Source: a phage
Strand: one strand, 5' to 3'
Sequence record: PZ452591.1
Length of the DNA: 64,000 nucleotides
Of the stretch, positions 17,216-56,535 are shown one piece after another. The notes under the pieces are model-generated. The model ran no database searches. It was not told the origin of the DNA and worked only from the letters and a program-made list of their open reading frames with translations. Positions within the stretch are counted from its first letter, which is position 1. Every line of letters starts with the position of its first letter. A program made the translations under genes and the position numbers.

Positions 17216-17841
17216 TGGCATAATTCGCAATACTCTGGGTCTTCGAGAGGTATCCAACCTGAGTTGAAATACTTTACCATCGATTTAGCAGTTGTATCAG
17301 TTATATTTATATTACCTTTAACTCTTCGCCATCCAGGAGTTTTACCGTACAGATTAGAGGATAATAATAACTCATAATTCTCGTAAGCAATATGAGATAA
17401 TTTCCAAGACTCTATATTAGCTCGTGATGTTTTCCAAGGTCTAAAATCGTCACGGTTCATATAATTAGCCAATCTCATATGCTCTCTAACTTCCGGGTCT
17501 TTGGCTGGATGAGTTTCACCACTCACACCAAATCCACCACCAGCATATACCAGATTAAAATAGTCTGGATTATCTCTGGCATTTACTTCAAGTTGGTATT
17601 TTCGTTCTGCTTCAATAACATCCAAGTCATCATCAATTTGAATTATTTTAACGCTCGGTTTTTGAAGCATTAGCGCATTCAAAAATCTTTTTTGTTTACA
17701 TGAGCTCCAGTATTCCTTTCCGGAAGAGTCATATATTATTCCGTTCTCAAATGAGCAATTTAATTTACTACCGATATAGTAGTATGGCGGAGTCTTATTT
17801 TTGACACGGTCTTCAAATGTAAACCAATATACTATATTCAT
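17209..17841 (-). CDS. GIY-YIG family putative homing endonuclease (seg-like), 210 aa
   Basis: ATG at 17839-17841; N-terminal IVYWFTF...YYYIGS and downstream ERKYQLEVNARDN resemble the GIY-YIG catalytic core. Confidence 0.65.
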   Translation of the reverse strand: MNIVYWFTFEDRVKNKTPPYYYIGSKLNCSFENGIIYDSSGKEYWSSCKQKRFLNALMLQKPSVKIIQIDDDLDVIEAERKYQLEVNARDNPDYFNLVYAGGGFGVSGETHPAKDPEVREHMRLANYMNRDDFRPWKTSRANIESWKLSHIAYENYELLLSSNLYGKTPGWRRVKGNINITDTTAKSMVKYFNSGWIPLEDPEYCELCQL

Positions 17842-17842
17842 A

Positions 17843-18496
17843 TCAATACTTGCAAGATTTCACAGTTTCAATGAAAACACTTTTAGCTTTCTGTGAATCA
17901 ATATTTAAAATTTTTCTATAAGCCTTTAACTTTATAGAATAATTATTCCAGACTAAATTATCAGTCTGTTCATCATGTTTATCAATTATATTTAAAAACG
18001 AATCAAGCAAGATAAACGTCTCAAACGAAATTATGTTCGATTGCAGAAGTTTAAAAATATAACTTGACTGAACCTTTGGATTATATTCAAAGATTTCTTT
18101 AAAAGCAGAAACTTCAACTTTCTTACTAAAATAATAAATGTTGCGAATATCTTCTTCAAACTTAAATTTAATTTGCTTTAAGCGTCCGATATATTCACGA
18201 TAAAACACAAGTGCATCAGCGTCAGAGATGTCACCAATCCAAGCATCTTGGTTAGCAACCAAATTACTTATAAAGATTAAAGCAAGTTCCTTTAATTTAT
18301 ATTTTTCTGATAACTTCTGGAAAAAATACTTATCCCTTCGCTTTTGATAAGCGGCATCAGACACCCGCATGCACCAATTATACTTAATTACATCATACTT
18401 TCCATTCATATGCTGTTTTATCATTAAGTATAATTTATAAACTGATTTACCATCAATGTATCTTTCACCACCAGCAGGCATGCGGAGTTTAATCAT
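17843..18496 (-). CDS. 59: helicase loader gp59, 217 aa
   Basis: ATG at 18494-18496; length and position match T4 gp59. Confidence 0.88.
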   Translation of the reverse strand: MIKLRMPAGGERYIDGKSVYKLYLMIKQHMNGKYDVIKYNWCMRVSDAAYQKRRDKYFFQKLSEKYKLKELALIFISNLVANQDAWIGDISDADALVFYREYIGRLKQIKFKFEEDIRNIYYFSKKVEVSAFKEIFEYNPKVQSSYIFKLLQSNIISFETFILLDSFLNIIDKHDEQTDNLVWNNYSIKLKAYRKILNIDSQKAKSVFIETVKSCKY

Positions 18497-53499: not shown

Positions 53500-53571
53500 A
53501 GTGCTCTCCTCTATAAGATAATTTTATTATACCATACTCATTTTGGAAAGTAAACCGTTTAAATGAAAAAA

Positions 53572-53589
53572 GGACTCCCGAAGGAGTCC
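53572..53589 (-). terminator. intrinsic terminator after soc, GGACUCC-UUCG-GGAGUCC
   Basis: identical hairpin to 528-545; A-run on plus side; just past the soc stop. Confidence 0.6.
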
Positions 53590-53595
53590 TTGAAT

Positions 53596-53841
53596 TTATT
53601 CACCAGTTACTTTCCACAAATCTTCATTTGCAGCAATCCATTCAGTACGTTGATTTTCTTCATATACTGTAGAATATGCTGCTTTTTCTGAAGGGAATGT
53701 CTGGTAATGAGCGCCAGAAATTTTGTGAACGTCAGAATAAAGAGGGAAAGCTACAGAAATTTCCTTTCCTTCAATTTTCTTATTTCCATCTAATTTCTGC
53801 TCAAATGTTTTAATATTAACATAACCGCGAGTACTAGCCAT
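53596..53841 (-). CDS. soc: small outer capsid protein Soc, 81 aa
   Basis: ATG at 53839-53841; late promoter TATAAATA upstream. Confidence 0.88.
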   Translation of the reverse strand: MASTRGYVNIKTFEQKLDGNKKIEGKEISVAFPLYSDVHKISGAHYQTFPSEKAAYSTVYEENQRTEWIAANEDLWKVTGE

Positions 53842-53871: not shown

Positions 53872-53879
53872 TATTTATA
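53872..53879 (-). promoter_or_regulatory. late promoter TATAAATA for soc
   Basis: exact octamer on minus strand about 30 nt upstream of the soc ATG. Confidence 0.6.
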
Positions 53880-53924: not shown

Positions 53925-54443
53925 TTAATAGCCTCGATCTTGACGTGCGAAATTTTCGGCATTTTTCAGATAATAAAGTTTAAAGATTTCTTCAGCTGAC
54001 ATTCCAAGAGCAATAAATTTATTCATGAAAAAGTGAAATTGGTCAATCAGTTCAAATTTAATTTCAAGCTGATCTTCGGGAGATAAATCTTGAATTTTCT
54101 TGGATTGCATTTCAGAATAACGTTTCTTCCAAGGTTTCCATACAGCAGAAGCTTCTTTTTCACCATTACTCATACCACCAAGAGAAGTATATAGCTCGCG
54201 AGTTTCGTCTGCGATATAATCGTCTTGGTTTCGCAGCCAAGCAAGAACTTCTCCTGCGGTTTCAAGTGAATCAGGATGACGATTTGTTTCTGGCTTATCA
54301 TTAGCCAAACGAATCTGTAAAGACCGCTGCATATCAAGCATAACCTGCAATGGGTCTTTTTCATCACCGAGAATATCCCGGTATTCATTTTGAGCTTTAT
54401 CAACACCTTCGATCAAATGAGCGCATTCATTAAAGTGAGCCAT
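53925..54443 (-). CDS. 56: dCTPase/dUTPase gp56, 172 aa
   Basis: start set at ATG 54441-54443 (MAHFNECAHLIEGVDKAQNEY...) with AAAGGAAAA Shine-Dalgarno; the track ORF extension begins at GTG and covers the promoter. Confidence 0.85.
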   Translation of the reverse strand: MAHFNECAHLIEGVDKAQNEYRDILGDEKDPLQVMLDMQRSLQIRLANDKPETNRHPDSLETAGEVLAWLRNQDDYIADETRELYTSLGGMSNGEKEASAVWKPWKKRYSEMQSKKIQDLSPEDQLEIKFELIDQFHFFMNKFIALGMSAEEIFKLYYLKNAENFARQDRGY

Positions 54444-54477
54444 TATTTTTCCTTTCAATTCATGGGTTAGTAGATTA

Positions 54478-54502
54478 ATTATACAATAAATATATAAAGC
54501 AA
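54478..54502 (-). promoter_or_regulatory. MotA-dependent middle promoter (MotA box TTGCTTTA, 11 nt, -10 TATAAT)
   Basis: minus strand ...ATTGCTTTATATATTTATTGTATAATTAA... about 35-60 nt upstream of the gene 56 ATG. Confidence 0.5.
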
Positions 54503-54514
54503 TAAGGAGGACAT

Positions 54515-54715
54515 ATGGTACAAAAATTAATGGCACTTGTTGATGCCATAAAAGGTAATAAGAAACGTATAGCTTTTACTATTTCTGCTATGGTAGGAAT
54601 TTTACTCTGGAACTTTATTTTATCACCTGTTGCAATTGCTCATGGTGTTAATATTCCAGTAGTTACTCTTGATACATTCGTAGATTTAGCATTTGCTTTA
54701 GTTGGGTTAATTTAA
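54515..54715 (+). CDS. small hydrophobic ORF, 66 aa, plus strand, in the 56-61 spacer
   Basis: ATG at 54515 with strong AAGGAGG Shine-Dalgarno 4 nt upstream; two predicted transmembrane segments; opposite strand to all neighbours. Confidence 0.3.
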   Translation: MVQKLMALVDAIKGNKKRIAFTISAMVGILLWNFILSPVAIAHGVNIPVVTLDTFVDLAFALVGLI

Positions 54716-55740
54716 ATCTTAGCATATTTAGATAGCCGCATTTTAGCCATCAACCCCTGTGCAATATTATTTTTCATATATTCCATAATTTGTTCAGTGG
54801 TTGCACCTTCCTTTCTAATCATATCATTAACATCTTTTGATTTCCAGGGAGATTTATCCCAAAACATAACCCTTTCTCCTGCATCAACTAATTTAGTCAT
54901 TCGCTTAATAGTGTCAGGGTGACGAGGTTCATTATCTAAGACCCACACACGTCTATCTTTAAATGGAACAACTTCTAGGTCTAATTGACCACCCGTAATA
55001 GCTATACCATTTTCAATAAAAAGTGAATCTATAGGTCCTTCTAGAACATATACATCACCATCTTTAACTCGTTCTACTCCATAGATTTTTGTTGCCTCAG
55101 GATAAGCTTTGATGGTGATATATTTTTGAGGAGCATCTTTCTTTAATGCACGCCCTTGAAAAGACTCAGCTTTTCCATTAGCATTATAAATTGGAATAAC
55201 AAGACGAGGCTCAGGTATTTCCTTTTTATATGTTCCCGGTGCTATACTATTAACTAATTTAGGCCATTCAGTTGTAAACCAAAGATATTTCCATTTATCC
55301 TTTGGAATACAACGAGCTTTTACGTATTTTATAATTGGATGGTCTTCCGCCAGTTTATCTAATCTAACACATGACGGAAGAGATTTAATTATTTTCTTCT
55401 CAGGTTGTTTAGGAAGTTCTTTAAGTTTTTCTACTGGACGACTTTTACCTTTTTCTTTTCTTATTTCAAAGATATACTCACGATATAAATCAGGTTCAAA
55501 CTCCTTTAAATATATTCCGATTGGTGCATGATAGTTACAGTTATAACAATGAATATTTCCTTCATTATTATCACCATAATACCATCCACGGGCTTTATTT
55601 TGGTCGGTTTTTGAATCTCCACACACTGGGCATCTAAACCGCAATTTAAAAGTTGAACTATTATTTACTTGTGTGAATTTAGGTAAATGAGCTAATGCAC
55701 GGTATGCAAACTCATTATCAATCCAAGGTATTGATGACAT
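54712..55740 (-). CDS. 61: DNA primase gp61, 342 aa
   Basis: ATG at 55738-55740; zinc-ribbon CPVCGDSKTD...CYNCNYH and Toprim region; matches recalled T4 gp61. Confidence 0.92.
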   Translation of the reverse strand: MSSIPWIDNEFAYRALAHLPKFTQVNNSSTFKLRFRCPVCGDSKTDQNKARGWYYGDNNEGNIHCYNCNYHAPIGIYLKEFEPDLYREYIFEIRKEKGKSRPVEKLKELPKQPEKKIIKSLPSCVRLDKLAEDHPIIKYVKARCIPKDKWKYLWFTTEWPKLVNSIAPGTYKKEIPEPRLVIPIYNANGKAESFQGRALKKDAPQKYITIKAYPEATKIYGVERVKDGDVYVLEGPIDSLFIENGIAITGGQLDLEVVPFKDRRVWVLDNEPRHPDTIKRMTKLVDAGERVMFWDKSPWKSKDVNDMIRKEGATTEQIMEYMKNNIAQGLMAKMRLSKYAKI

Positions 55741-55908: not shown

Positions 55909-56535
55909 TTAACCTCTATTCATAAAAGCATTAAAAATTTGGTCATCAATAGAAACATTTACTTTAGACTGTTTTTCAGATGGCAATTCATATCCACATA
56001 TTACAATTTTATAATCAATATCAAAATACACAGAAGCAATATGATTAATGATATTTTCAGTAAAGTCTAAATCAACATCAATATCTTTTTGACCAAAGCC
56101 CAAAGGATAAATAATGCGAGTAATTCGATTATCTTTAACAAAGATTCCACCGACATACTCTGTACTGCGTTTAAAGTCTACACGCCGACGAAATGAAAAA
56201 TATTCAGGCTCTTTATGAGCTCGGCTCATAGGGCACAACGAATAACTAGAATAAGAGATGTCAAATCCTACGCCTTCAATATGAACTAAATTGTCATGAT
56301 TAAACCAATTATAATCATATGCCAAGTCCATTAGATTGTCATACGTGAAAGGCACCGGATTAACATCATTGGTCACAAGCATATAATTAGCAACTGCTAT
56401 AATTTCATTATTTTTAACGAATACAAACCGTGATTGATGCGAATGGCCTGGACCTGCGTTTTCACGATTAATGATATAACACTGGGCACCTTTATATTTG
56501 TACGTGTCTTTACACTTGTGCATTTGATAAAGCAT
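55909..56535 (-). CDS. hypothetical protein, 208 aa (61.2 position)
   Basis: ATG at 56533-56535; assignment to the 61.2 slot is by gene order only. Confidence 0.55.
   Translation of the reverse strand: MLYQMHKCKDTYKYKGAQCYIINRENAGPGHSHQSRFVFVKNNEIIAVANYMLVTNDVNPVPFTYDNLMDLAYDYNWFNHDNLVHIEGVGFDISYSSYSLCPMSRAHKEPEYFSFRRRVDFKRSTEYVGGIFVKDNRITRIIYPLGFGQKDIDVDLDFTENIINHIASVYFDIDYKIVICGYELPSEKQSKVNVSIDDQIFNAFMNRG

Follow-up and report, generated by a model that had tools for sequence, protein, structure and literature searches.

Middle promoters of bacteriophage T4 consist of a MotA box, (a/t)(a/t)TGCTT(t/c)A, followed after about 11-13 bp by a sigma-70 -10 element, and they have no -35 element. 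The middle promoter of T4 gene 56, P(M)16.53, whose mot-box and -10 are annotated in X01416, gives rise to a transcript that is the oriA primer according to the annotation of NC_000866. The genes of this T4 region stand in the order soc-segF-56-dam-61 in NC_000866, just as the sequence-only reading that preceded this analysis had stated. Late promoters of T4 follow TATAAATA; a list of 50 sites contains 32 perfect ones and nine with A at -13 (PMC2988020).

The window analyzed here is a stretch of 64,000 nucleotides of phage DNA (sequence record PZ452591.1) that shares with the T4 dam-56-segF-soc locus (the oriA region) the flanking genes, the 56 middle promoter, and the soc late promoter, but lacks the T4 insertions of dam (about 0.9 kb) and segF (0.7 kb). 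A T4-type early region, encoded on the minus strand, occupies the window between about 53.5 and 58.8 kb. The soc gene (53596..53841, minus strand) encodes 81 aa that match Pfam PF16855 Soc with an E-value of 2.3e-55 as well as PHROG 1715. Its direct neighbor, across a spacer of 83 bp, is gene 56 (53925..54443, minus strand), encoding a dCTPase/dUTPase of 172 aa that starts at an ATG with MAHFNE, matches PHROG 173 (E 9e-43), and aligns to T4 gp56; the adjacency of soc and 56 had been recognized from the letters alone. Gene 61 (54712..55740, minus strand) encodes a DNA primase of 342 aa (PHROG 47, E 7.5e-107) that is near-identical to T4 gp61. The spacer between genes 56 and 61 is 268 bp long (54444-54711), in agreement with the initial description, and the sole substantial open reading frame in this interval is a 66-aa ORF on the plus strand (54515..54715), opposite to its neighbors. 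Gene 61 converges on the ORF, and the stop codons of the two overlap by 4 nt (TTAA). The ORF is preceded, 4 nt 5' of its ATG, by the Shine-Dalgarno sequence AAGGAGG (54504..54510, plus strand), which had also been read correctly. Beyond gene 61 the window continues with 61.1, 61.2, sp, 61.4, dmd, and 41. Homologues of Dam, SegF, T2_31, soc.1, and soc.2 were not detected by tblastn in the 64-kb window (best Dam E 1.6). Likewise, the proposed search for dam elsewhere in the genome, for which positions 1-135 kb of phage JK38 together with the window served as a whole-genome proxy, found none at E <= 0.01. Just 3' of soc, at 53570-53591, there is a strong bidirectional terminator-like hairpin with a 9 bp stem containing 5 GC pairs.

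How unusual is this arrangement? The spacer had been described as unusual, with the proviso that the description would fall if T4-like phages generally had the same short spacer, and the compact layout proved to be common. With a 181-bp query spanning the starts of gene 56 and of the ORF, the contiguous junction was found in 294 phage records, T6 and many RB phages among them, the most of any layout counted. The nearest record, Shigella phage JK38 (Tequatrovirus), has an identity of 98.6% across 901 bp and of 100% across the junction. The ORF itself is present at >=90% protein identity in about 501 records (Tequatrovirus-type) and, counting all tblastn matches, in 693 phage records; T4-type Dam at >=90% identity is found in about 182 records, and SegF at >=95% identity in about 46. 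The ORF always lies between 56 and 61 and converges on 61, in eight Tevenvirinae genera and one metagenomic T4-like phage, and both its position and its strand are kept in T4, T2, JK42, VR25, STP4-a, Kp122, Q7622, KLB31, PM2, and L009. Seven other genera have the ORF between 56 and 61, and six of these are compact and without dam; phages with the compact 56/ORF/61 order include Mosigvirus, Gaprivervirus, Gelderlandvirus, Jiaodavirus, Mosugukvirus, and the metagenomic T4-like phage. Judged by these gene orders, the layout of the window is the standard compact form of a Tevenvirinae module in which 56 reads leftward, a small gene reads rightward, and 61 reads leftward. Since the compact layout is found across genera, T4 and T2 are the phages with extra cargo, a minority that carries dam (T4) or dam and T2_31 (T2) between 56 and the small gene.

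The gene order of T2 is 56-dam-T2_31-ORF-61, together with soc-soc.1-soc.2-56, and in Kanagawavirus a mazG-like gene fills the slot next to 56. The slot between 56 and the small ORF, which is empty in the window (54444-54484), is a recurrent cargo site: it is occupied by dam in T4, by dam and the 181-aa T2_31 in T2, by the mazG-like gene in Kanagawavirus, and by another methyltransferase in Salmonella phage SG1. The locus illustrates that mobile cargo such as dam, segF, T2_31, and the mazG-like gene enters fixed slots and leaves the flanking promoter-gene units undisturbed. A second region of variation lies beyond gene 61, where the gene 61.2 region is mosaic (window 55953-56516 versus JK38 17515-18442) and identity to JK38 is 88% or lost. 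The window has one T4-like 61.2 of 208 aa; JK38 and T2 have a different, 118-aa gene there, and in JK38 this gene has an extra 210-aa gene beside it.

The ORF had been presented as either a new small antisense membrane protein or the relic of a deletion. The first of these descriptions holds in part: the ORF is a genuine gene of membrane type on the strand opposite to its neighbors, but it is not new. It already belongs to PHROG 2024, whose HMM it matches with an E-value of 4.5e-31 (residues 2-66 align to positions 1-65 of the 65-position profile), and hundreds of genomes list it as a hypothetical protein. It is the orthologue of RB69ORF029w and RB32 030w, to which it is equal in length, position, and strand; these, like JK38_00030, are annotated as hypothetical proteins, and the T2 annotation cites similarity to RB69ORF029w and RB32 030w. 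ORF029w was one of the novel ORFs of the 2006 RB69 paper, which predicted a transmembrane segment at residues 21-41 (PMC1524935 supplement). Our literature searches found no published expression or functional data on any family member, and searches for RB69ORF029w, for T4 Ribo-seq or unannotated ORFs, and for possible gene names returned nothing relevant. Both the layout, which is the commonest, and the family, which is catalogued, are thus already known, and the value for a genome scan is mostly ordinary; what is added here is a modest lead on the origin and timing of a known but uncharacterized family.

T4 has its own copy. In NC_000866.4 it occupies 17738-17938 on the plus strand (L002 4239-4439), in the 309-bp "gap" between dam and 61, and its 66 aa are identical to the window protein at 64 of 66 positions. 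It is annotated neither in NC_000866 nor in the classical records X01416 and K03113, and no NCBI accession was found for the exact T4 protein. The T4 reference therefore lacks a gene that is conserved across Tevenvirinae, and since the gene is missing from the NC_000866 annotation, the screens, proteomics, and transcriptomics built on that annotation miss it too.

The absence of the gene from the T4 reference records, its shortness and AT-rich composition, and a terminator-like hairpin inside it could be taken to mean that the ORF arose by chance within a stretch that is kept for a non-coding purpose, as a terminator of 61 or an origin for example, or that it is what a deletion of dam left behind. 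The comparative data speak against this reading. Eight genera keep the frame open over 61-69 aa, at 20-55% protein identity. The dN/dS of the window ORF is 0.20 versus Mosigvirus and 0.41 versus Gaprivervirus, comparisons in which synonymous sites have reached or come close to saturation; codon position 2 shows the fewest changes (12 of 65, versus 30 and 40 at positions 1 and 3). The family splits into two subfamilies, and in Gaprivervirus VR25 (L004 2495-2901) two tandem plus-strand copies of 65 and 66 aa, one from each subfamily, lie between 56 and 61. The hairpin is unconserved beyond Tequatrovirus. Finally, a deletion relic is contradicted by T4 and T2, which hold both dam and an intact ORF, and by the seven other genera with the ORF between 56 and 61, six of them compact and without dam. 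The readings of the ORF as a relic or as spurious were consequently dropped, and we regard a chance frame or remnant as scarcely credible. Sequence conservation shows the ORF to be a real, syntenic gene under purifying selection that is common to T4. An exhaustive profile search found just 18 representative clusters in the family, all of them PHROG 2024.

What would drive the two divergent genes? On the minus strand, a well-formed motif for a MotA-type middle promoter of gene 56, which had been picked out in the first reading, is predicted at 54478..54503: the MotA box ATTGCTTTA (54503..54495) is separated by an 11-bp spacer from the -10 element TATAAT (54483..54478). This arrangement fits the definition of a MotA middle promoter given above, and a MotA box and -10 element are also visible in JK42, VR25, and L009. 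The soc gene is preceded by the late promoter TATAAATA at 53872..53879 on the minus strand (ATAAATA at 53872-53878), which lies in the 83-bp soc-56 spacer, the site of segF in T4; its T4 counterpart is P(L) 15.32 in X01416.

The small gene appears to have a late promoter of its own. A gp55-type late core, AATAAATA, with A at -13, is predicted at 54485..54492 on the plus strand, 22 nt before the ATG, with a transcription start predicted near 54498. Ten of the 11 Tevenvirinae lineages carry an nATAAATA box 12-22 nt 5' of the ATG: it reads AATAAATA in the window and JK42, GATAAATA in T4, T2, L009, and PM2, CATAAATA in VR25, Kp122, and KLB31, and TATAAATA in Q7622. STP4-a has no clean late box upstream of the ORF. 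The difference from TATAAATA is at -13, where the window has A and T4 and T2 have G. Similarly, the Shine-Dalgarno sequence is retained as AAGGAGG, AGGAGG, or TAAGGAG in nearly all orthologues. Upstream of the late box, T4 and T2 have sequence unrelated to that of the window, yet both keep the box and the Shine-Dalgarno sequence. Two distant family members have the motif CTAAATA upstream, which is the late-promoter consensus reported for phage Aeh1 (PMC1524935). An HMM scan of RB69 from 2006 did not assign ORF029w a late promoter. Apart from the ORF, no gene in the first 75 kb of JK38 lies on the plus strand. Within the window, ATAAATA shows an about three-fold depletion, with 12 sites on both strands versus 37 +/- 6 in shuffles, and the 12 sites include the soc late promoter and the box of the ORF; this depletion is consistent with selection against stray late promoters. 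From these signals we infer that the ORF is expressed late and in a gp55-dependent manner. Another of the ATAAATA sites, at 56107-56113 on the plus strand, lies inside and antisense to 61.2 with no convincing ORF downstream, and it may be a late antisense promoter.

Because the dam and segF insertions are missing in the window, the small gene's late promoter overlaps the middle promoter of 56: the late box falls inside the 11-bp spacer of the 56 promoter on the opposite strand. This geometry raises the question of whether the main product is a protein at all. Firing of the late promoter could instead shut off P56, and with it any oriA-type priming, late in infection; the transcript would then continue antisense into 61 and lower primase expression, and the ORF would be of secondary importance. 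In addition to the position of the late box, this proposal draws on the overlap of the ORF with the stop codon of 61, on the lack of any plus-strand terminator-like site for about 4 kb after the ORF, and on the transcription of both strands at some T4 sites at different times (PMC2988020). The overlap, however, is kept neither in T4 nor in other genera. The late box is about 0.9 kb from P56 in T4 and about 1.4 kb from it in T2, so the promoter overlap is not conserved, and JK42 and VR25 have the box beyond the limits of the middle-promoter spacer; it is this lack of conservation that makes promoter occlusion or an antisense role a weak rival. Selection has moreover acted on the amino-acid sequence across genera, and the strong Shine-Dalgarno sequence is conserved as well. 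We therefore consider a primarily regulatory transcript to be quite improbable. On the minus strand, a terminator scan identified a hairpin followed by a T-run (ATGGCATCAACAAGTGCCAT TAATTTTTGT) at 54530..54549, within codons 6-12 of the ORF and 160 nt downstream of gene 61. With a fold of -8.2 kcal/mol and a z of -2.1 it is weakly terminator-like, and it is kept in T4 (-8.9) and absent in Mosigvirus and Gaprivervirus. The hairpin could terminate gene 61 transcripts; we rejected it as a conserved terminator, given its weakness and its restriction to Tequatrovirus.

The AlphaFold2 model of the 66-aa protein (pLDDT 78.7) contains helices at residues 2-12, 16-42, and 52-63. Hydropathy is maximal at residues 23-41, and the hydrophobic span, residues 19-42, is followed by a 13-residue C-terminal helix. 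The N-terminal 18 residues carry a charge of +4 and the C-terminal 24 residues a charge of -2, a bias that is kept in most of the family. On the basis of hydropathy and charge bias, the protein is predicted to span the membrane once with an N-in/C-out topology. An alignment of 24 sequences from two Tevenvirinae subfamilies shows no variation at W32, N33, P38, and G44 and almost none at P48; when distant members are included (18-sequence alignment), P38 alone is invariant and N33 nearly so. Sequence searches of Pfam, NCBIfam, and PDB with the window protein returned nothing meaningful, and a Foldseek search of a viral structure library returned only family members, one of which was automatically named 'Holin'.

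Distant members of the family are more informative. Three of them match the C-terminal part of PF11351 GTA_holin_3TM at sub-threshold levels (E 0.03-0.1, 13.6-15.3 bits), and another comparison places the distant member P0119 on a holin PHROG at E 5e-4. A weak tblastn match led to RHWG_00029 of Rhodobacter phage RC1, a 170-aa protein encoded directly after the endolysin, which scores 24.2 bits on PF11351, just under the 24.8 cut-off, and whose relatives in RcWaterboi and phiM5 carry a holin annotation. We compared the family by hhalign with five RcapMu/RC1-type holins, rather than with the Pfam model, and obtained a probability of 86.7% (P 4.3e-6) over 45 columns; membrane-segment profile comparisons frequently yield false positives, and a value of 87% is not proof. 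The match covers the transmembrane helix and tail of the family and only the last membrane segment and tail of the holins. Its score of 35.8 compares with 10.9 for reversed alignments and 10.4 +/- 2.6 (maximum 18.3) for 60 column shuffles. The similarity to the holin segment is thus shown to stand above controls at the level of sequence profiles. PF11351 includes TeaA, the holin of Vibrio phage ICP1 (PMC7182436). A word-indexed search with a broad family profile found no protein with a precomputed PF11351 label, and a scan of viral contigs for relatives of the RC1 holin found none.

The genomic surroundings of the distant members can be added to this picture. One distant member belongs to a four-gene operon that ends with a T4-type lysozyme. 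A 70-aa relative (L017 7002-7214), about 1.5 kb from a lysozyme gene and a DUF2730 gene, marks the extreme end of a prophage that is inserted in yegD on the E. coli chromosome and is present in about 25 complete E. coli genomes. In three phage contexts (L011, L013, and L016) distant members adjoin a gene for an endonuclease VII like T4 gp49. The 180-aa and 109-aa genes that follow the distant member P0120 were considered as spanins and rejected, since they have no membrane or lipoprotein features, and a homologous 179-aa protein downstream of P0114 (L011) matches a minor-tail PHROG. Similarly, the 91-aa neighbor of the L013 lysozyme, with a transmembrane segment and a coiled coil, falls short of a DUF2730 assignment.

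The window protein itself gives no Pfam match to PF11351 at E <= 1 (gathering threshold 24.8 bits), has one span in place of the three transmembrane segments of that family, and is encoded far from the endolysin in T-even phages: the JK38 genome has the ORF at 16.1 kb and its lysozyme gene at 63.5 kb. Because these formal tests of score, segment number, and endolysin adjacency failed, we call the protein holin-derived or holin-like and not a member of PF11351.

We propose the following explanation, which we hold to be somewhat better than an even bet as a whole: the locus is a standard compact module whose small gene encodes an inner-membrane protein that is made late and contains a holin-derived domain. 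Two promoters would stand back to back in the 71 bp that separate the start codons of 56 and the ORF. Gene 56 would be driven by a MotA-dependent middle promoter, which corresponds to T4 P(M)16.53/oriA, and the 66-aa protein, on the other strand, by the gp55-type late promoter AATAAATA and the strong Shine-Dalgarno sequence. This protein would have a basic cytoplasmic N-terminus, one transmembrane helix at about residues 19-42 with the invariant W-N and proline, and a short periplasmic tail that is acidic and hydrophobic. The helix and tail would share a distant ancestry with the final membrane segment and the tail of PF11351 holins. Late in infection, the protein would act at the inner membrane as a holin-derived accessory that modulates membrane integrity or the timing of lysis.

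T4 lysis is already explained by t, e, the spanins, rI, and rIII, which leaves room for a different view, namely that the gene is real and late but has a function unrelated to holins or lysis, the holin-like segment being a reused membrane helix. The protein could then serve in superinfection exclusion or counter-defence, or as an inner-membrane anchor for a component of assembly or replication. In every Tevenvirinae genus examined the gene is conserved beside the replication genes 56 and 61 and not beside lysis genes; the periplasmic exclusion protein Sp is encoded among its neighbors; and the Pfam match is below threshold. What tempers this view is that the only relatives detectable outside the family are holins and that several distant members are found in or near lysozyme-containing clusters. 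On balance we rate a function apart from lysis as a serious possibility that we nonetheless tend to doubt.

The holin of T4 is gpt, which is unrelated to the ORF protein, and t mutants do not lyse. Since T4 lysis needs gpt, the ORF protein cannot be the main or a sufficient holin; under the holin-derived explanation it would most likely be an accessory for membrane integrity or lysis timing. A bolder version of this idea is that T4 and its relatives encode an overlooked late 'mini-holin' with one helix, derived from a three-helix holin and acting in the lysis decision. Such a mini-holin could tune the triggering of gpt, contribute to lysis inhibition, or depolarize the membrane. We think this version unlikely, but if it were true, the best-studied lysis system would have missed a component encoded by a gene that was never annotated in the T4 reference. 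In any case, the signs of late expression together with the PF11351 link provide a concrete and cheaply testable hypothesis for a protein of a model phage.

Finally, the protein can be set beside the membrane proteins it most resembles. T4 gpt and gpRI are late, single-pass proteins of the inner membrane, as is predicted for the ORF protein, and gpt has an N-in/C-out topology that we take to resemble the predicted one. No sequence similarity was detected between the ORF protein and gpt or gpRI, and in contrast to the large periplasmic domains of gpt and RI the ORF protein has only a 24-residue tail. The PF11351 holins, represented by those of RcGTA, TeaA, and RcapMu/RC1/RcWaterboi, have three transmembrane segments in 120-170 aa, whereas the ORF protein has one in 66 aa; yet the pattern LW(L)WN-x-I-x(5-6)-A-x(2-3)-G-x(2)-(L/I)-P-x-(M/I/V)-P-x-(D/E) occurs in both.
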